From sequence record OZ335961.1: a DNA stretch of 64,000 bases. One strand, 5' to 3'. The stretch is from a phage. Position 1 is the stretch's first letter, and each line of letters opens with the position of its first letter. A program made the position numbers and the translations under genes. This document shows, one piece after another, positions 5,433 through 58,738 of this stretch. The notes below the pieces were generated by a model, which saw only the letters and a list, made by a program, of their open reading frames with translations, was not told the origin of the DNA and did not search any database.

Positions 5433-5953
5433 GTTGATCCCAGCTCCTTACTTTCAACGTTTTTAACTAATTTGACAGAAACTAATTCAGCATCTTGAGT
5501 AATCATTACCGGACCTTCTTCATACTCTTCGAGATACTCTAGAGCTTTCTTTTTAGCTTCTTCCTTCGTATCAGTTTGAGCATAGATATAAAACATACAA
5601 CCAGTAATACCTACTACTTTCCACTTAATTTCTTTATCAGCTTTAATTTCAAATTTACTGACAGAGTCATCTTTTTGAACTTCTTCGAAAAAAGAATATT
5701 CTAACATATAAGCAATTGAAAATAACGGGCTAACTTTATAGGATTCGCCCATTACATCAACAGCTTTATACCAGCAATCATCAATTTCACGTTTAATGCT
5801 AATAACATTTTTCGCAGGATCTATTTTTACTTTAAATGAATTTTCCCCAATAAACTGAGCAATTCGTTTATTAGCCCCACAGGTTTCATTAAAAATATCT
5901 TTATATCCAGCTTTAAAGCGATAAACCTTATCTTCTTCAAACCATTCGCTCAT
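5426..5953 (-). CDS. hypothetical protein (175 aa)
   Basis: ORF track; early promoter-like element upstream at ~5983-6012. Confidence 0.55.
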   Translation of the reverse strand: MSEWFEEDKVYRFKAGYKDIFNETCGANKRIAQFIGENSFKVKIDPAKNVISIKREIDDCWYKAVDVMGESYKVSPLFSIAYMLEYSFFEEVQKDDSVSKFEIKADKEIKWKVVGITGCMFYIYAQTDTKEEAKKKALEYLEEYEEGPVMITQDAELVSVKLVKNVESKELGSTC

Positions 5954-5982
5954 TTCAATTTCCTCATTTGTTTTGGTAGAGC

Positions 5983-7909: not shown

Positions 7910-8136
7910 CTATTTTTCTCAACCAATGATTGAATATAATCATGTAGGTCTTTAGATGCTTTACCCCACTTATTTTGGTATTCATTTTTAAGATTAGCAC
8001 GAGATTGAGCTAATAAAACATCATTAGTTGGAGGTAAAGATTCTAACCGCTGAATCTGGCGTCCGTAAATCATTGCAGCCATCTCGGATTCATAAATCAA
8101 TCCTTTGAGATGTTCAAATTGATGCCATGAAATCAT
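7906..8136 (-). CDS. hypothetical protein (76 aa)
   Basis: ORF track; pseT-alc interval. Confidence 0.45.
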
Positions 8137-8432
8137 TTACATTTATCCTCTTTTAGCTCTTGACGATAATAACATATCATAGTTTTCTGATCATGCACAT
8201 ATCGTTTTACATCATTAAGCCAAATACGAAATTCCTGGGAATCTTCAAATGGCATACCGACCCAAGCTTTACCATCGATAACTTTAACTTGCCAAGATAG
8301 TTTAGCTTCATCATATGACTTTATCTGCACAGGCCAATTAGGATGAACTGTTTCTTTCTTTACTTCTAGAGGCTTTGTCGAACAACCAACTAGAAGACCA
8401 ATAGATAATATTACTGCTGATAGTTTAATCAT
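8133..8432 (-). CDS. o-spanin-like outer-membrane lipoprotein (Rz1 equivalent)
   Basis: N-terminal signal peptide with lipobox LLVGC; directly downstream of the i-spanin-like ORF; corresponds to the T4 pseT.2/pseT.3 spanin pair. Confidence 0.5.
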   Translation of the reverse strand: MIKLSAVILSIGLLVGCSTKPLEVKKETVHPNWPVQIKSYDEAKLSWQVKVIDGKAWVGMPFEDSQEFRIWLNDVKRYVHDQKTMICYYRQELKEDKCK

Positions 8433-8782
8433 TTAGAAAGGTCCTGGATGTCTTCTGCGAACTTGTTGAAGGAGTTGTTGATTTGTTTTTCAACCAATCC
8501 TGGCTTATGAGCCACCACATCCGCCTTCTTTGCGTCTTTGCGCAGTTTTTCATTTTCACGCTCAATAGCAGCAATTGCCTCACGATTTTTATTATTCATC
8601 GCATCAATATAATTATACTGAATTCGCAAATTATTTAATGCTAAAGCGTTTTCATTGGCCGTTTTTGTAATTTCAGTAACCGATGTTTCTAATCTTTCTA
8701 CCTTATTTTTTAAAATAATAGATGTTCCGCCAAATGCTATTACAAGTAATAGCAATCCAGCTGTAAAATTACTTACATGCAT
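8429..8782 (-). CDS. i-spanin-like protein (Rz equivalent)
   Basis: N-terminal transmembrane helix followed by long coiled-coil-like charged region; 4-nt overlap with lipoprotein gene. Confidence 0.5.
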   Translation of the reverse strand: MHVSNFTAGLLLLVIAFGGTSIILKNKVERLETSVTEITKTANENALALNNLRIQYNYIDAMNNKNREAIAAIERENEKLRKDAKKADVVAHKPGLVEKQINNSFNKFAEDIQDLSK

Positions 8783-9276
8783 AAAGTTTTAATAACCTCT
8801 ACAATATCGTCTTGAGAAAGACCGTTAATTAAAATATGATGTTCAGCCGGAGATTTAGAAATTTTAAAGCATGCCTCAACATCTTCTGCCATATCCGATG
8901 CGCTACGATTTGGATTACTAATTCCAAGACGATGTTTTCCCGTCAAAGGATTAACGATGATGTAGCATTTACAATTATTGATATGAACATTAGGTTGAGT
9001 CTGATTAATGAACACATCACAATCATATTTCGCAAGCTGATTTTCTAAAAAGACTTTCATCTCCTCAACTGCATCAGGAAGCATATCACGGGCTTGCTCA
9101 AGACGACGATTTCGATATTCTTTAATGGTCGTTTTCCGCTTGACTTGCTTAGCTAAATCTTTCTTAAGATCGGTGATATATCCAACTCGACGATTTCCTT
9201 TAAATACAGAAATCCCATCTGTAGTATCACCGTATGCTTCAACGACCATCTCAGTAGTAATAAGCTGCAAATCCAT
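8773..9276 (-). CDS. alc: Alc (host transcription termination/unfolding protein)
   Basis: ~167 aa in the T4 alc position adjacent to rnlA; early-promoter element upstream at ~9308-9337. Confidence 0.6.
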   Translation of the reverse strand: MDLQLITTEMVVEAYGDTTDGISVFKGNRRVGYITDLKKDLAKQVKRKTTIKEYRNRRLEQARDMLPDAVEEMKVFLENQLAKYDCDVFINQTQPNVHINNCKCYIIVNPLTGKHRLGISNPNRSASDMAEDVEACFKISKSPAEHHILINGLSQDDIVEVIKTLCM

Positions 9277-9307
9277 CATAAAGTCCTCATGTTATGTCAG
9301 TAAGACT

Positions 9308-9337
9308 ACTATAACACAACACGAGGGACTTGTAAAC
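9308..9337 (-). promoter_or_regulatory. T4-type early promoter upstream of alc
   Basis: GTTTAC -35, TATAGT -10, 18 bp spacer. Confidence 0.45.
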
Positions 9338-9340
9338 AGC

Positions 9341-10928
<1,588 letters not shown>

Positions 10929-10955
10929 AATAAAATGGGCCTTGCGGCCCACTCC

Positions 10956-12125
10956 TTAAAAATATTTTTTAAAACTCATCATAACTTTATCATCAACATC
11001 ATTATCAATCTGTGCTACAAGGTAAGATGACAGTTCTACTTCCTGTGGCGCGGATTGAACATTATCAGAATTAAGGTATTCACGAATCCAAGGATACGGA
11101 TGTTTAACCGGAGCATCGGTAATTGGGCATGGAAGACCACACTGTTTCATACGAGATACAGTTAAGTAATCAATAAAGCTCCACATGCTATTTGTATTTA
11201 ATCCAGGAACATCGCCATCTTTAAATAAATGAACTGCCCAGTCTTTTTCTTGACGGTTAACTTCCATGAAAATATCAACTGCTTCTTGTTCACACTCTTG
11301 GGCGATTTTAACCCATTCATCACCATCAGTGCCAAGTTGAAGTTGACGAATAATATATTGGGTGCCTTTAAGGTGAAGCTGCTCATCACGTGCAATGAAC
11401 TTCATAATCTTGGCATTACCTTCCATGATTTCCATGTTCTTATGGAAGTTAAAGGTACATGCGAAAGATACATAAAAACGAATAGCTTCCAGTGCATTGA
11501 TTACATGAAGGCAAAGATAAAGAGATTTCATTAGTGCTTGTTTAGTACATTCAACAACTTTGCCTAACTCTTCTTTGCGAAATCCTTCTGATAAAATTCC
11601 TTCATAATCTTCAACCGCATTCTGATATTCACGAGTCTTAACTAGAACGTCATCATAATAACGACCAATAGATTCAGCACGTTTCATGATAGCTTTATCT
11701 AATACAATCTCATCAAATACCTTTGACGGATCAGTATAAAGATTTCGCATGATATGAGTATATGAACGGCTGTGAATAGTTTCACTAAAAGTCCATGTAG
11801 CAACCCATGTATCAAGACTTGGATCTGAAATTAACGACATAAGTACAGCAGACGGTGCACGACCCTGAATGCTATCTAGAAGTGATTGATACTTCAGGTT
11901 ATTAGTAAAAATATCTTGCTGATATTGAGGAAGCTTGTTAAATTGCGCAGCATCCATCATCAAGTTTACTTCTTCAGGACGCCAGAAAAATGATAATTGC
12001 TTTTCGGTTAAATCTTCAAAAACTTTATGGCGTTGAATATCATAACGCGCAATACCAAGACCTGAACCGAAGAACATAGGTTCTTTTAAAACATCAACTG
12101 GATTTGTATTAAAAACTGTAGACAT
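10956..12125 (-). CDS. nrdB: ribonucleotide reductase small (beta) subunit, uninterrupted
   Basis: ~389 aa from MSTVFNTNPVDV...; diiron-tyrosyl radical R2 family; continuous ORF, no intron. Confidence 0.9.
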   Translation of the reverse strand: MSTVFNTNPVDVLKEPMFFGSGLGIARYDIQRHKVFEDLTEKQLSFFWRPEEVNLMMDAAQFNKLPQYQQDIFTNNLKYQSLLDSIQGRAPSAVLMSLISDPSLDTWVATWTFSETIHSRSYTHIMRNLYTDPSKVFDEIVLDKAIMKRAESIGRYYDDVLVKTREYQNAVEDYEGILSEGFRKEELGKVVECTKQALMKSLYLCLHVINALEAIRFYVSFACTFNFHKNMEIMEGNAKIMKFIARDEQLHLKGTQYIIRQLQLGTDGDEWVKIAQECEQEAVDIFMEVNRQEKDWAVHLFKDGDVPGLNTNSMWSFIDYLTVSRMKQCGLPCPITDAPVKHPYPWIREYLNSDNVQSAPQEVELSSYLVAQIDNDVDDKVMMSFKKYF

Positions 12126-12856
12126 TAATTTTTCCTCTTTAAAATTCTGCCGTGTTTCCAACCTGGCGGTATAATATCATCTTTACCTATAAGCGTGCAT
12201 TCACTTCCATTATTAATCCATTTCTTACCGCGGATTCCTTTATAATCTCTTGGTTTTATTTTGTCAAACTTTGCATCAAGTTGATATGACCATCTAAATC
12301 CATAAGCATATTGAAATTTACCCTCGGCGCAATATTTGATATTTGACCCGTTTCCATTAACTGACCGGGACGCTGCTGCAATAGAGTGAAAAGTTTCTAT
12401 GAAATCCCCATCTAATGAGAATTTATGTATTTCTACAGATGGGCACGCATATCTATTCACGTTAGATACATGTTGTTTAGTTTCGTTTTTATGATGCTTA
12501 CCTAGCATTCCTTTAGGATGAGGATTATTTTTCCAATATTTCTTAAAGAACTCAGAATTAGCTTTAGCAAATAATTTTCTGTGTAAGCTGTACAATCTAT
12601 TATTAATTCTATTGCCAGCTTTATCTGTTGCCATTAGCGTTAATGCAGAGGCAAGTCCAAAATGGCCTTCATTTATCTTACACAGTAATAGATGTGCTAT
12701 AAAATGTTCTCTAGCTGTTAATTCAACTAAATTTTCTTTATCATCAGAACCTCCCATGCATCTAGGGATTATATGATGTGTCTCTTTATATTCTGATAAA
12801 GATTCCCGAGCCTGAGCTCGGGAAATTAGGTCGTTATAGATTTTTTGATAATTCAT
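12125..12856 (-). CDS. mobE: HNH homing endonuclease (Mob-type)
   Basis: 243 aa; HHIIPRCMGGSDDKENLVELTAREHFIAH HNH core; sits between nrdA and nrdB as T4 mobE does. Confidence 0.7.
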   Translation of the reverse strand: MNYQKIYNDLISRAQARESLSEYKETHHIIPRCMGGSDDKENLVELTAREHFIAHLLLCKINEGHFGLASALTLMATDKAGNRINNRLYSLHRKLFAKANSEFFKKYWKNNPHPKGMLGKHHKNETKQHVSNVNRYACPSVEIHKFSLDGDFIETFHSIAAASRSVNGNGSNIKYCAEGKFQYAYGFRWSYQLDAKFDKIKPRDYKGIRGKKWINNGSECTLIGKDDIIPPGWKHGRILKRKN

Positions 12857-15120
12857 TATAATTTACACGCTGCGCAATCATCGGCTTTTGGAGCTTCTAT
12901 TTCATAATCATCAGTACCAGAACCATCGCGAGTATTATGATAATAGAAATTTTTAATGCCATAATACCATCCGTATAGCATGTCATCAATCATTATTGAC
13001 ATTGGAACCTTTCCTTTTGGAAAAATCTGCGGGTCATAATATGTATTCGCTGAAGCTGATTGACATACCCATTTCAGCATAATAGCTACTTGCGTAAGAT
13101 AAGGTTTATTACCTTTCTTAGCTAATTTCCACGTATAATCATATAGGTCTATGTTATGCTCAATATTGGGCACGACTTGATTAAAGGAACCCTCTTTTGA
13201 TTCTTTAACAGAGACTGGTCCACGTGGAGGCTCGATACCGTTTGTACTGTTAGAAACTTGGGAAGATGACTCACATGGCATAAGTGCTGATAATGTGCTA
13301 TTACGGATGCCAAAGAGCTTAAGGTCTTCCCGCAGCGACGACCAGTCACAAACGTATTTTGGAGCTGCGATTTGGTCAATCTTTTTATTGTACCAGTCGA
13401 TAGGTAATTCGCCTCGAGACCAACGAGTGTCTGAATAATATTCGCAAGGTCCTTTTTCTTTGGCGAGTTTAATGGATGCTTTAATGAGTCCATACTGCAA
13501 TCTCTCAAATAGTTCATGTGTTAAATCGTTAGCATCTTCATAAGAAGCAAAATTACTTGCCAGCCAAGCTGCATAGTTAGTAACACCTACGCCAAGGTTT
13601 CGACGCTTTTTAGCTTTTTCTGCTTCAGGAACTGGATATCCTTGGTAATCCAAAAGATTATCAAGAGCACGAACTTGGACTTCTGCCAATTCATTAATTT
13701 TATCTTGGTCTTGCCAATCGAAGTTATCTAACACAAATGCAGATAACGTGCACAATCCAATTTCAGCATCAGGACTATTCACATCATTTGTTGGAATAGC
13801 AATTTCACAGCACAAGTTACTCTGACGAATAGGTGCCTTTTCACGAATAAATGGCGTATAGTTATTCGTATTATCAATGAACTGCACATAAATCCTTGCT
13901 GTTCCTGAGCGTTCAGTCATAAGTAATTCAAACAGTTCACGGGCTTTAATACGCTTTTTACGAATATTAGGGTCTTTTTCTGCGGCTTCGTATAATTCAC
14001 GGAAACGGTCTTGGTCTTTAAAATAAGAATAATAAAGTTCGCCACCCATTTCATGCGGACTAAACAAAGTAATGTAATCGTTCTTTCCGAATCGTTCCAT
14101 CATTAGGTCATTCAGTTGAACGCCATAATCCATATGACGGATACGGTTTTCTTCTACACCTTTGTTGTTTTTCAAAACGAGAAGATTTTCAACTTCCAAA
14201 TGCCAAATAGGATAATAAGCAGTAGCAGCGCCGCCACGAATTCCACCCTGTGAGCATGATTTAACAGCAGTCTGAAAATGTTTCCAAAAAGGAATAACAC
14301 CAGTATGACGTACTTCACCTGTGCCAATCTTAGAACCTTCGGCACGAATCATACCAACGTTAATACCAATTCCAGCACGTTTGGAGATATATTCAACAAT
14401 TGAAGCGGAAGCCTTATTGATAGACTTTAATGAATCACCTGCTTCAATAACAACACATGAACTAAACTGTCGAGTTGGAGTACGACAACCAGCCATAATA
14501 GGAGTTGGCAATGAAATCTGTCGAGTAGATACTGCTTCATAAAAACGAATAACGTGTTTTAGTCTATCAACAGGTTCATCTTGATGCAATGCCATTCCAA
14601 TAGTCATAAATGCAAACTGTGGAGTTTCATAAATTTGACCAGTGGTTTTATCTTTAACTAGATATTTTTCTTTTAATTGCATCGCCCCGGAATAAGTAAA
14701 TTCCATATCCCGCTCGTGCTTAATTTTTGATTCTAAAAATGTAATTTCTTCTGCTGAATATTTTGACAACAGTTCAGGGTCGTATTTACCTTCATTTACA
14801 CAGTAAGAAATATGGTCAATAAATGAACGTGGTTCATATTGTCCATAAACATGCTTACGAAGAGCGAACATTAAACAGCGTGCAGCTACGTATTGATAAT
14901 CAGGCTCTTCAACTGAAATAGAATTCGCAGCAGCCTTAATTACAATGGTTTGAATGTCATCAGTGGTCATTCCATCACGGAGATATGATTTAATATTTTC
15001 ATATAATTCATAAGGATCTACAGATGTTCCTTCAGCTGCCCAAGATAAAACTTTAATAATTTTTTGCGGGTCAAAGCTCTGAGAAACACCACTACTTTTG
15101 ATAACATTAATTAATTGCAT
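12856..15120 (-). CDS. nrdA: ribonucleotide reductase large (alpha) subunit
   Basis: 754 aa; ATP-cone N-terminus and C-terminal Cys-containing tail (DDCAACKL); class Ia R1. Confidence 0.95.
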   Translation of the reverse strand: MQLINVIKSSGVSQSFDPQKIIKVLSWAAEGTSVDPYELYENIKSYLRDGMTTDDIQTIVIKAAANSISVEEPDYQYVAARCLMFALRKHVYGQYEPRSFIDHISYCVNEGKYDPELLSKYSAEEITFLESKIKHERDMEFTYSGAMQLKEKYLVKDKTTGQIYETPQFAFMTIGMALHQDEPVDRLKHVIRFYEAVSTRQISLPTPIMAGCRTPTRQFSSCVVIEAGDSLKSINKASASIVEYISKRAGIGINVGMIRAEGSKIGTGEVRHTGVIPFWKHFQTAVKSCSQGGIRGGAATAYYPIWHLEVENLLVLKNNKGVEENRIRHMDYGVQLNDLMMERFGKNDYITLFSPHEMGGELYYSYFKDQDRFRELYEAAEKDPNIRKKRIKARELFELLMTERSGTARIYVQFIDNTNNYTPFIREKAPIRQSNLCCEIAIPTNDVNSPDAEIGLCTLSAFVLDNFDWQDQDKINELAEVQVRALDNLLDYQGYPVPEAEKAKKRRNLGVGVTNYAAWLASNFASYEDANDLTHELFERLQYGLIKASIKLAKEKGPCEYYSDTRWSRGELPIDWYNKKIDQIAAPKYVCDWSSLREDLKLFGIRNSTLSALMPCESSSQVSNSTNGIEPPRGPVSVKESKEGSFNQVVPNIEHNIDLYDYTWKLAKKGNKPYLTQVAIMLKWVCQSASANTYYDPQIFPKGKVPMSIMIDDMLYGWYYGIKNFYYHNTRDGSGTDDYEIEAPKADDCAACKL

Positions 15121-15437
15121 AAGTCCTCAACTTGAAAATCGTCTTTAAACAATCGGTTAACTATATGAGCTATTATATCACCATGACACGGCTTTGGTTT
15201 ACATGTGCATCCTATCCTCATTCCACGTAAAGGCTCTAAATGTGCTTTAGTTATTTCTCCGGATTTAATTCGACGTATAAAATCTTTTTTGAATAATTCA
15301 ATGGCAGCCTCCCGGCTGCCAGCATCTTTACCGACGTAATTTCCCCAAAATGTACCACGGTGAATATTAACATCAAAGTCGGATTTATATTTATTCACTA
15401 CCTGACATAGACGGCCCGCGCGGTGATAATTCGTCAT
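15111..15437 (-). CDS. hypothetical protein (108 aa)
   Basis: ORF track; nrdA-td interval; contains CTCKPKPCH Cys/His cluster. Confidence 0.45.
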
Positions 15438-15666
15438 ATTGTTTTTCCGTTAAAACAGTAATATCATAATAACAATCAGAAGAAGTTTTAACTGTAGAAA
15501 TTTTATTATCAAAATACTCACGAGTCATTTTATGAGTATAATATTTTTTGCCATAAATGATAATAGGCTGATTTGGTCCTGGAACTTCTAACTCGCTTGG
15601 ATTAGGAAGTGTAAAAAGAACTACACCAGAAGTATCCTTAAATCGTAAAATCATATATCCTCTCAA
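15391..15666 (-). CDS. hypothetical protein (91 aa)
   Basis: ORF track; nrdA-td interval. Confidence 0.4.
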
Positions 15667-15677
15667 TTAAATTAAAA

Positions 15678-16537
15678 TTACACCGCCATCTTTCCTTTAA
15701 TTGGCGGGTGAGATACATAGTTGTTAAGAACAAAATTATGCGGCTTTGCGAATTGACTCAACCAAAATACCTGCGATTCTGTGTCCCATTCATCAAATTC
15801 ATCTGGAAATTTTAATTGTAATTCGCATAAATCCATAGGTTCACGACGCAAAATTTCTTTACATTGTTCTACGTGATTCATATAGATATGAGTATTACCA
15901 CCAGAAAATATCAAATCTCCTGGAATAAGATTACACATCTTAGCTACAATATGAACTAATGCAGCATATGACGCAATATTAAATGGAAGACCGAGGAAAA
16001 CATCTACTGAACGTTGATACCACTGCAAATCCAAATAGCCATTACGCACATTAAATTGATAGAACATATGACAAGGTGGTAATGCCATTTGCTTGAGTTC
16101 AGCTGGATTCCATGCTGAAACAATTTGACGTCTATCATTTGGCAGTTTTTTAATACGATCAATAACTTCTATAATTTGGTCTACACCGCCAAAATCGCGC
16201 CACTGTTTTCCATAAATTGGACCAAGTTCACCGCTATGGTATCCTAAATCTTTTGCTTGGTTTTCGTAATTTTCATCCCAGACCGTTTTGCCTTGAATTA
16301 ATGAATCATGTTGAATTAATCGCAAATCATTGACATTTGTGCTTCCCGATAAAAACCATATTAGTTCAGCAATGCAAGCTTTCCAGGCGAGCTTCTTAGT
16401 CGTTACTGCAGGAAAACCTTTAGTTAAATCCCAGCGTAATTTAGTACCGAACAAAGCAATTGTTCCTGTGCCTGTTCGGTCATCGGTTTCATAGCCATTT
16501 TCCAGGATATCTTTAATTAAAAATTGGTATTGTTTCA

Positions 16538-16538
<1 letters not shown>
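15678..16538 (-). CDS. td: thymidylate synthase, uninterrupted
   Basis: ~286 aa from MKQYQF...; catalytic PPCH motif and C-terminal GKMAV; continuous ORF, no intron. Confidence 0.9.
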
Positions 16539-17570
<1,032 letters not shown>

Positions 17571-56271: not shown

Positions 56272-56790
56272 TTAATAGCCTCGGTCTTGACGAGCGAAGT
56301 TTTCGGCATTTTTTAGATAATAAAGTTTAAAGATTTCTTCAGCCGTAAGACCGAGACCTTGGAACATGTTCAGAACAAAATGAAGAATATCAATCATTTC
56401 GAATTTAATTTCCAACTGATCTTGTGGAGATAAGTCAGTAATCAGAGTTTCACGGCGTTCACCATGTTGAGATTTCCACGGCTTCCATACAGCAGATGCA
56501 TCTTTTTCGCCATTGCTCATACCACCAAGAGAAGTCAGAAGTTCGCGGAATTCATCATCAATATAATCTTTTTGATTACGCAGCCAATCAACAACTTCAC
56601 CTGCAGTAGCCAAATCATCAGGATGACGGTTATATTCAGGTTTATCTTTAGCTAAACGAACCTGCAGAGATTTCTGCATATCAAGCATAACTTGCAGCGG
56701 GTCTTTTTCATCACCGAGAATATCCCAGTATTCATTTTGAGCTTTATCAGCGCCTTCAATCAGTTGACTACATTCGTTGAAATGTGGCAT
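56272..56790 (-). CDS. 56: dCTP pyrophosphatase gp56 (MazG-like)
   Basis: 172 aa; size and position as T4 gp56. Confidence 0.8.
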   Translation of the reverse strand: MPHFNECSQLIEGADKAQNEYWDILGDEKDPLQVMLDMQKSLQVRLAKDKPEYNRHPDDLATAGEVVDWLRNQKDYIDDEFRELLTSLGGMSNGEKDASAVWKPWKSQHGERRETLITDLSPQDQLEIKFEMIDILHFVLNMFQGLGLTAEEIFKLYYLKNAENFARQDRGY

Positions 56791-56791
56791 G

Positions 56792-57442
56792 TTATTTTTC
56801 CTTTCTTATGAAGTTTTCTATCATATGTCTATAGCAGATATTAGGATAACCTGCCTTGACAGCTATTTTATTAAATTTTGTGCGCTTAGGTCTATTATTA
56901 TAAACCCATAATTCATAAAGCGCATCATAACTATTCCATATTTCTCCTCGCCTAGGATTTGGTAAACCATATCGAGGCGAATTTTTACCGCTAAATCTTC
57001 CTTTTCGGGCTTTACTCATATTAGTCTTGGCTTCATCGGATATAATTTTACCTTTATGAGCTAGACGCATTTTGGCTTTAGTTTCTTCTGGAGTCTTTTT
57101 GCCTTTAATCCATGACGGCTTACCATATCTAGGATTATTTTCACCCGAGAAAAGAACAGAGTTTTGGATTTTAAGGGTTTCTATTAATCTACTTGTTAAT
57201 TTAACACCTTTATTATATCGCATTAAATTTACAGCATAATGCAATCCTCTCACATCTGGATATATTTTAGTTAATAATCTATGAGCTATAAAATGCTCAC
57301 GCGCAGTTAACTCAACAAGATTGTTTTTGCCATCTGCTCCTCCCATACATCTAGGAATTATATGATGGCGTTCTTTATATCCGCCAAGATGCCGGCATTT
57401 AGCTTTTGTAATTAAAGCCGAGTAAATTTTTTGGTAATTCAC
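56792..57442 (-). CDS. HNH homing endonuclease (Mob-type), paralogue of 12125..12856
   Basis: 216 aa; N-terminus nearly identical to the nrdA/nrdB endonuclease (MNYQKIY..HHIIPRCMGG..NLVELTAREHFIAH); C-terminal NUMOD-like repeats (NPRYGKP, NSPRYGLP). Confidence 0.75.
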   Translation of the reverse strand: MNYQKIYSALITKAKCRHLGGYKERHHIIPRCMGGADGKNNLVELTAREHFIAHRLLTKIYPDVRGLHYAVNLMRYNKGVKLTSRLIETLKIQNSVLFSGENNPRYGKPSWIKGKKTPEETKAKMRLAHKGKIISDEAKTNMSKARKGRFSGKNSPRYGLPNPRRGEIWNSYDALYELWVYNNRPKRTKFNKIAVKAGYPNICYRHMIENFIRKEK

Positions 57443-57512: not shown

Positions 57513-57713
57513 ATGGTACAAAAATTAATGGCACTTGTAGATGCCATAAAAGGTAATAAAAGACGTATAGCTTTTACTATTTCTGCTATGATAGGAATTT
57601 TACTTTGGAATTTTGTTTTATCGCCAGTTGCTATTGCTCATGGTGTTAGTATTCCAGTAATTACTCTCGATACATTCGTAGATTTAGCATTTGCTTTAGT
57701 TGGGTTAATTTAA
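57513..57713 (+). CDS. small hydrophobic protein (66 aa), opposite strand to neighbours
   Basis: ORF track; canonical SD AAGGAGG 7 nt before ATG; two predicted hydrophobic segments; 3' end converges on the primase stop. Confidence 0.45.
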   Translation: MVQKLMALVDAIKGNKRRIAFTISAMIGILLWNFVLSPVAIAHGVSIPVITLDTFVDLAFALVGLI

Positions 57714-58738
57714 ATCTTAGCATATTTAGATAGCCGCATTTTGGCCATCAACCCTTGGGCAATATTATTTTTCATATATTCCATAATTTGTTCAGGGGTT
57801 GCACCTTCCTTTCTAATCATATCATTAACATCTTTTGATTTCCAGGGAGATTTGTCCCAAAACATAACCCTTTCTCCTGCATCAACCAATTTAGTCATTC
57901 GTTTAATAGTATCAGGGTGACGAGGTTCATTATCTAAAACCCATACACGTCTATCTTTAAATGGAACAATTTCTAGGTCTAATTGACCACCCGTAATAGC
58001 TATACCATTTTCAATAAAAAGTGAATCTATAGGTCCTTCTAGAACATATACATCACCATCTTTGACTCGTTCAACTCCATAGATTTTTGTTGCCTCAGGA
58101 TAAGCTTTGATGGTGATATATTTTTGAGGAGCATCTTTCTTTAATGCACGTCCTTGAAAAGACTCAGCTTTTCCGTTAGCATTATAAATTGGAATAACAA
58201 GACGAGGCTCAGATATTTCCTTTTTATATGTTCCTGGCGCTATACTATTAACTAATTTAGGCCATTCGGTTGTAAACCAAAGATATTTCCATTTATCCTT
58301 TGGAATACAACGAGCTTTTACATATTTTATAATTGGATGGTCTTCCGCCAGTTTATCTAATCTAATGCATGACGGAAGAGATTTAATTATTTTCTTCTCA
58401 GGCTGCTTAGGAAGTTCTTTAGGTTTTTCTACTGGACGACTTTTACCTTTTTCTTTTCTTATTTCAAAGATATACTCACGATATAAATCAGGTTCAAACT
58501 CCTTTAAATATATTCCGATTGGTGCATGATAGTTACAGTTATAACAATGAATATTTCCTTCATTATTATCACCATAATACCATCCACGGGCTTTATTTTG
58601 GTCGGTTTTTGAATCTCCACAAACAGGGCATCTAAACCGTAATTTAAAAGTTGAACTATTATTTACTTGTGCGAATTTAGGTAAATGAGCCAATGCACGG
58701 TATGCAAACTCATTATCAATCCAAGGTATTGATGACAT
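57710..58738 (-). CDS. 61: DNA primase gp61
   Basis: 342 aa as T4 gp61; N-terminal CPVCGD...CYNCNYH zinc ribbon; TOPRIM core. Confidence 0.9.
   Translation of the reverse strand: MSSIPWIDNEFAYRALAHLPKFAQVNNSSTFKLRFRCPVCGDSKTDQNKARGWYYGDNNEGNIHCYNCNYHAPIGIYLKEFEPDLYREYIFEIRKEKGKSRPVEKPKELPKQPEKKIIKSLPSCIRLDKLAEDHPIIKYVKARCIPKDKWKYLWFTTEWPKLVNSIAPGTYKKEISEPRLVIPIYNANGKAESFQGRALKKDAPQKYITIKAYPEATKIYGVERVKDGDVYVLEGPIDSLFIENGIAITGGQLDLEIVPFKDRRVWVLDNEPRHPDTIKRMTKLVDAGERVMFWDKSPWKSKDVNDMIRKEGATPEQIMEYMKNNIAQGLMAKMRLSKYAKI

Follow-up and report, generated by a model that had tools for sequence, protein, structure and literature searches.

A probable RB3-type mobE gene between nrdA and nrdB in a T4-like phage with uninterrupted td and nrdB

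What kind of gene lies between nrdA and nrdB in this T4-like (Tequatrovirus) stretch of DNA, whether the group I introns of td and nrdB accompany it, and where its product might cut are the questions raised by the locus described here. The stretch that was analysed, referred to below as the window, is 64 kb long; many Tequatrovirus genomes match it at 95-96% identity over 25 kb, and it is identical to none in the collection. The original prediction placed an HNH homing endonuclease between nrdA and nrdB, read td and nrdB as continuous genes, and held that the introns with I-TevI and I-TevIII were absent, leaving a locus with a free-standing endonuclease and no intron-borne ones.

The nrdA-nrdB junction and the intronless td and nrdB genes

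All genes of the region are on the minus strand. From higher to lower coordinates they are frd (16741-17325), a 68-aa ORF (16538-16744), td (15678-16538; a single uninterrupted 286-aa ORF, Pfam Thymidylat_synt E 2.1e-94), nrdA.2 (15391-15666), nrdA.1 (15111-15437), nrdA (12856-15120; 754 aa, uninterrupted, Pfam Ribonuc_red_lgC E 2.6e-137), the gene in question (12125-12856; an ATG start and 243 codons plus stop), nrdB (10956-12125; 389 aa, uninterrupted, Pfam Ribonuc_red_sm E 2.5e-37) and denA (10518-10952). The 243-aa ORF is free-standing, in that it abuts the nrdA stop and the nrdB start, the two junctions reading GTAAATTATAATGAATTAT and AAAGAGGAAAAATTAATGTCT, and matches no group I intron model. 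Its ATG (12856-12854) has one base in common with the nrdA stop TAA (12858-12856), forming a TAATG overlap at 12854-12858 that extends to TAATGA at 12858-12853, the mobE-type arrangement of T4. Its own stop TAA (12127-12125) has one base in common with the nrdB ATG (12125-12123), and this second TAATG follows a GAGG ribosome-binding site that lies 8 nt upstream of the nrdB ATG, within the 3' end of the endonuclease ORF (12123-12139, reading AAAGAGGAAAAATTAATG). The endonuclease start had been said to overlap the 5' end of nrdB; on the minus strand, where 12125 is the last base of the endonuclease stop, this is true of coordinate 12125 only, and in terms of the gene it is the stop codon that overlaps the nrdB ATG and the start that overlaps the nrdA stop.

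Alignment of td and nrdB to the T4 exon junctions showed both genes to be contiguous and collinear with the exons. The td gene aligned to T4 as nucleotides 1-549 and 550-861, with 1017 nt of T4 insert between them (by subtraction); the T4 insertion point corresponds to 15990|15989, across which the window is continuous (...TTTTCCTCGGT|CTTCCATTTAAT...). The I-TevI-type homing site in td is largely conserved and the CAACG cleavage motif is kept. On both sides of the intron, nrdB is collinear with the exons of T4, in which the intron measures 598 nt, and of RB10, in which it measures about 1.1 kb; the insertion point of T4 and RB3 corresponds to 11459|11458, and here too the window is continuous (...TCTTTCGCAT|GTACCTTTAAC...). 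A search for group I intron cores with Rfam at the gathering score gave no match anywhere in the 64-kb window, and at permissive E-values, from 10400 to 17400, it gave three unrelated chance-level matches and no group I intron. The window likewise yielded no tblastn match to I-TevI or to full-length I-TevIII. The absence of both the td and the nrdB intron is confirmed: neither intron sequence nor split exons, which were looked for, were found in either gene, both of which run uninterrupted across the exact T4 insertion points. The prediction of a locus with a free-standing endonuclease and without I-TevI or I-TevIII is supported.

This intronless state of td and nrdB is common among relatives. 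The td gene was contiguous over at least 80% of the query in 436 of 651 matching records; where td is interrupted, the break falls precisely at nt 549. Among the 55 top-ranked DNA matches holding the same endonuclease allele, nrdB was uninterrupted in 43; in the other 12 (the RB3 group, pSe_SNUABM_01, G2540-3 and vb_GEC_SH_GT) the alignment ends at query position 1074. Since crosses of T4 with T2 were reported to yield progeny that are mobE-plus and I-TevIII-minus (PMC2790892), the occurrence of mobE without the nrdB intron is expected and unsurprising.

Identity and anatomy of the endonuclease gene

The ORF at 12125-12856 is very probably the RB3-type allele of mobE, a selfish, free-standing member of the Mob family of HNH homing endonuclease genes whose insertion point in this Tequatrovirus is precisely the nrdA-nrdB junction. 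Its product matched PHROG 655 ('homing endonuclease') at E 8.5e-58, is homologous along its whole length to MobE of RB3 and RB10, and is 96.7% identical to the product, likewise of 243 aa, of the RB10 gene annotated 'mobE: putative homing endonuclease'. The DNA is ~94% identical to mobE of RB3 (AY262130.2, KM606994) and relatives. In the DNA search the same gene, at the same site, was found labelled mobE in RB3, RB5, RB6, RB7, RB9 and RB10 (AY262130.2, KM606994-KM606999, NC_025419), and MobE in the partial RB3 record AY262130.2; in RB10 its one-base overlaps with nrdA and nrdB are identical to those of the window. Unlike the window, the RB3 group has the nrdB intron (with full-length I-TevIII shown in RB10), and RB10 also has the td intron with I-TevI. 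A tblastn search found proteins at least 95% identical to it in about 55 Tequatrovirus records. A 61% identical homologue occupies the nrdA/nrdB site of a Salmonella Gelderlandvirus, and phages of Yersinia, Citrobacter and Vibrio, as well as metagenomes, have full-length homologues at 48-78% identity. With a 243-aa ORF that matches PHROG 655 and contains a NUMOD1 module, the placing of an HNH homing endonuclease between nrdA and nrdB was borne out.

Because the RB3-group records carry the mobE label and RB3 is listed among the mobE-containing phages (PMC2790892), the gene is a named and already described one, known for about twenty years, and the finding is correct but ordinary. That it already bears the name mobE in RB3 and relatives was a point missing from the original prediction. 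Beyond annotation the result has little weight: the proper annotation is mobE (RB3 type), in a phage to be entered as one without the td and nrdB introns. The first survey or description of mobE in RB3, and of Hef, is reportedly that of Sandegren et al. in 2005, on SegH and Hef. A literature search, in which the 2005 survey of RB3 mobE was not covered, found no experiment on the RB3-type allele.

A different origin was also considered, in which the ORF is an I-TevIII-related intron endonuclease that escaped from the nrdB intron and now lies outside it. Both are HNH enzymes associated with nrdB, and one tblastn match, at 39.8% identity, falls under a feature of phage G8 annotated 'group I intron endonuclease'. 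Against full-length RB10 I-TevIII, however, the protein showed 32% identity over a 56-residue HNH region (E 0.005) and nothing further; RB10 has both genes side by side, and there is no intron RNA core around the ORF. Such an escape is highly improbable and, with the similarity limited to 56 residues, was rejected.

In the mobE product of the window, the HNH motif (H27 H28 ... N42 ... H51 ... H55) is held within codons 1-55 (12692-12856), a 5' module shared with other alleles, and H27, H28, N42, H51 and H55 are invariant across 37 homologues. In Pfam the HNH score was 20.3 bits, slightly short of the cut-off of 21.4 (T4 MobE: 21.5). Pfam also recognized a NUMOD1 helix-turn-helix DNA-binding module at residues 147-177 (12326-12418), with 25.9 bits on the whole ORF (cut-off 22.8) and 27.2 bits on a C-terminal fragment. 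An AlphaFold model built on 37 homologues is confident, with a mean pLDDT of 90.1 and a pTM of 0.53, the latter in line with what loosely connected domains would give. In the model, residues 25-61 form two strands and a helix, the HNH unit, followed by a long helix (89-110), a further helix (124-137), the strand-strand-helix-helix arrangement of NUMOD1 (143-177, pLDDT about 96), and a small beta unit at the C-terminal end. The best structural match to the model was I-HmuI of Bacillus phage SPO1 (PDB 1u3e), a nicking HNH endonuclease; sequence searching of the PDB gave marginal HNH-motif matches only, at E 0.2-0.7.

An internal intrinsic terminator hairpin, the counterpart of the one mapped in T4 mobE, lies about 27-30 nt inside the coding region (12795-12824). 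It has a 9-bp stem, TTCCCGAGC/GCTCGGGAA, with the loop TCAG, and is followed by TCTTTATC; a terminator scan matched at 12824-12803, the RNA fold has -17.9 kcal/mol (z -3.67), and stem and loop are identical in the window, T4, slur02, RB10 and IME537. [quoted passage not shown] By analogy, mobE of the window would lack its own promoter and be transcribed from promoters upstream of nrdA, the conserved hairpin 30 nt into the gene would dampen the transcript level, and ribosomes ending on the nrdA stop would re-initiate at the overlapping TAATG; nrdB would be translated from the GAGG inside the endonuclease 3' end, at the second TAATG overlap. A middle promoter for nrdB was reported in T4, within or after the 3' part of the endonuclease gene. 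In the window, a simple pattern for MotA-type middle promoters (TGCTTNA-N11-13-TANNNT, at most one mismatch) gave no match in 12100-12900, and sigma-70-like promoter matches were not in excess (23, with 19.5 expected from shuffles).

Occupancy of the site and its three alleles

Evenly spaced genomes having both flanks (n=43) were used to evaluate how often the site is occupied. It was empty in 35, with a spacer of 52-54 nt, and held the RB3-type gene in three, the T4-type in three and the slur02-type in two; the junction spans 852-854 nt when empty, and 1438, 1495-1497 or 1531-1533 nt with the three alleles.

T4 MobE (141 aa; Wilson and Edgell 2009, PMC2790892) resembles the protein of the window in its insertion site, its TAATGA, its HNH residues 1-55 and its hairpin. 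The first 56 residues are identical at 55 positions, after which similarity collapses; overall identity, in a gapped alignment of 110 residues past which nothing aligns, is 64%, and homology over the whole protein was not found. At the DNA level, identity to T4 is 96.6% over 614 nt, from the 3' part of nrdA to 12687 (endonuclease nt 170), beyond which no similarity is detectable until the nrdB start. An alignment of DNA from five phages placed the break directly after the His55 codon, so that the shared piece holds the whole HNH motif and the hairpin. The part after residue 55 is unrelated to both the T4 and the slur02 alleles and constitutes a member-specific C-terminal DNA-binding part. Where T4 has a short, unrelated MobE tail and a separate ORF, nrdB.1, with NUMOD3, the window has one 243-aa protein with NUMOD1. 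The slur02-type endonuclease (213 aa, two NUMOD3 modules and a Cys/His motif) occupies the same site and shares the first ~60 residues, but has a different C-terminal DNA-binding part. T4 mobE and nrdB.1 were also considered as a split copy of the 243-aa gene; this was rejected, as NrdB.1 has no similarity to the 243-aa protein and matches the C-terminus of the slur02-type allele instead. This homing endonuclease locus offers a clean natural example of a shared catalytic cassette with swapped DNA-binding tails.

The extent of the sequence that travels with the gene was evaluated by comparing eight carriers of the allele (the window, RB10, IME537, ESH35, Ptacy1496, Sf23, G28 and Aplg8) with six empty-site genomes (T2, ZJUN4, B1.1, Ac3, e11/2 and AR1). 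At only six positions, nrdA -27, -24, -17, -14, -12 and -1, did the two groups have no base in common, and NrdA ends in ...DCAACKL with the stop TAA in carriers versus ...DCSSCKL with TGA in empty-site genomes. On the nrdB side only codon 2 (TCT versus AGC) tracks the gene, in seven of the eight carriers, and nothing does so from nt 7 to 450. All six nrdA states are also present in T4, and four of them in slur02. From the carrier-linked states and their sharing with T4 and slur02, the moving unit appears to extend from about nrdA -27 to nrdB +6, in a sample that is small and made up of related genomes; on the nrdA side it would take in the last 27 nt of that gene (12856-12883), identified by the genome comparison. 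Pattern scans of IMG/VR for the nrdA end against the endonuclease gave three and one concordant contigs and zero and zero discordant ones, which are too few to carry weight.

These observations bear on whether the gene still moves. The nrdB ribosome-binding site lies inside the ORF, both junctions have a one-base overlap, and for T4 it was argued that mobE is protected from deletion by selection on the regulatory elements it contains (PMC2790892). The gene might then be a domesticated or decaying remnant, no longer mobile and kept only because nrdB translation and the nrdA/nrdB stoichiometry depend on the terminator, the ribosome-binding site and the two TAATG overlaps. However, dN/dS was 0.04-0.10, and 0.05 for the part after codon 55, values that indicate purifying selection on the protein along its whole length, something for which a mere spacer would have no use. 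In addition, the catalytic residues are preserved, and presence or absence among near-identical genomes is the pattern of an active mobile gene. A remnant is an improbable reading of the locus.

Predicted action and target site

Most likely, the RB3-type MobE of the window is a free-standing homing endonuclease that nicks or cuts DNA and whose gene invades unoccupied nrdA/nrdB junctions when phages co-infect a cell. The N-terminal HNH cassette would nick or cut DNA, while the C-terminal modules (the long helix, NUMOD1 and the small beta domain) would bring the enzyme to a specific site close to the unoccupied nrdA/nrdB junction of a gene-free relative infecting the same cell; recombinational repair off the donor genome would then transfer the gene and, with it, the final ~27 nt of nrdA. 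For T4 MobE, HNH-dependent nicking and homing into T2 were demonstrated, with nicking of T2 nrdB at nt 122-126, a stretch in which T4's own nrdB has diverged; site-specific nicking and super-Mendelian inheritance were shown for T4 MobE only (PMC2790892).

The T4 MobE nick site corresponds to window 12004-12000. In the window, nrdB nt 114-131 reads GATTTAACCGAAAAGCAA, which is one base from T2 and eight from T4, and the carriers RB10, Sf23, G28 and ESH35 are likewise T2-type in this interval, with 0-1 changes. The allele could in principle be functionally equivalent to T4 MobE and share its target, in which case it would nick nrdB on the non-coding strand, at codon 42 (nt 122-126), in genomes that lack the gene. 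The locus, the first 55 residues and the regulatory hairpin are all shared with T4 mobE, and RB3 was grouped with the mobE-containing phages in the nick-site logo (PMC2790892). Yet residues 56-243, in which specificity is expected to lie, are unrelated to T4 MobE or T4 NrdB.1, the window and the four other carriers named above have the allele together with the T2-type, susceptible sequence, and at no position in nrdB 1-450 are all carriers distinguished from all non-carriers. Equivalence to T4 MobE is unlikely. With an unrelated DNA-binding part and a T2-like sequence at its own nick site, the RB3-type enzyme probably recognizes a site other than that of T4 MobE, or else does not spare its own genome.

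A more specific proposal, put forward tentatively, is that the T4, slur02 and RB3 alleles represent one catalytic cassette (codons 1-55, including the terminator, preceded by the final 17-27 nt of nrdA) that was recombined with three DNA-binding tails. The RB3-type tail might then direct cutting elsewhere than at the T4 MobE site, and a candidate target is the nrdA 3' end (coding CSSC) together with the 52-nt spacer of empty genomes, as these are the only places of consistent difference between carriers and non-carriers, apart from nrdB codon 2 in seven of eight carriers. In that case, one insertion site would be contested by alleles that differ in target. The T4 MobE cleavage site is in any case not simply transferable to the commoner RB3-type allele, a caution that bears on the use of these enzymes and on the modelling of marker exclusion between T-even phages.

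Other endonucleases associated with these genes differ from the RB3-type mobE in class or in position. Hef of phage U5, also free-standing, was reported to take the place of mobE and to cleave nrdB; unlike the HNH enzyme of the window, it was described as a unique, non-HNH class of endonuclease (PMC2988022). The mobE of Aeromonas phage Aeh1 is of the Mob type with an HNH motif and likewise accompanies the genes for aerobic ribonucleotide reductase (PMC2988022), but it lies inside nrdA and splits it, whereas nrdA of the window is intact.

Related endonucleases and split nrd genes

The first 127 residues of the RB3-type endonuclease lying between nrdA and nrdB are 50% identical to a second Mob-type HNH endonuclease in the window, a 216-aa ORF with NUMOD3 motifs on the minus strand (56792-57442), which is flanked by gene 61, encoding the primase (57710-58738), and gene 56, encoding the dCTPase (56272-56790). 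The nearest copy of the nrdA/nrdB endonuclease itself is found in phage IME537 (NC_054921), where, within 7957-11125, nrdA is annotated as two ORFs with another homing endonuclease gene (8936-9646) between them; this arrangement recalls Aeromonas phage Aeh1, in which nrdA is likewise split. In the Gelderlandvirus Salmonella phage UTK0003 (2501-5497), the nrdA/nrdB junction is likewise occupied by a homologue, with 61% identity, and a further endonuclease gene interrupts nrdB.

Comparison of the slur02-type endonuclease (213 aa; slur02 1903-2544) with T4 (NC_000866) revealed that the 3' end of its gene is almost the same in DNA sequence as T4 nrdB.1, an 83-aa ORF annotated as hypothetical (5717-5968); only a few positions differ across the final ~260 aligned nt. 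T4 nrdB.1 also contains a NUMOD3 motif (25.1 bits) and a Cys/His motif. Together, the near-identity and the two motifs make T4 mobE (141 aa) and nrdB.1 look like a mosaic or split form of a longer endonuclease gene, with the DNA-binding tail placed in a separate ORF.

Divergence of nrdB and td near the T4 intron insertion points

In NrdB, residues ~166-210, encoded at about 11495-11630 on the minus strand and shortly upstream of the intron insertion point, form a hypervariable stretch that is distinct in sequence and length in each of the window, T2 and T4, whereas the protein differs very little elsewhere. Megablast alignments of the window with the RB3 group end at 11627. In td, the similarity to T4 shifts exactly at the intron insertion point, such that the 3' part downstream of it (15678-15989, minus strand) has 78% identity to T4, with gaps, as compared to 93.6% for the upstream part.

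The frd/td junction

Between frd and td lies a 68-aa ORF of PHROG 9550, a family of unknown function (16538-16744, minus strand), which overlaps each of its neighbors by a few bases. In T4, by contrast, frd and td overlap directly with no gene between them, and T2 has a different ORF, of 115 aa, in this position. As judged by these comparisons, the frd/td junction is a further variable site, since T4 lacks a gene there and that of T2 is different.
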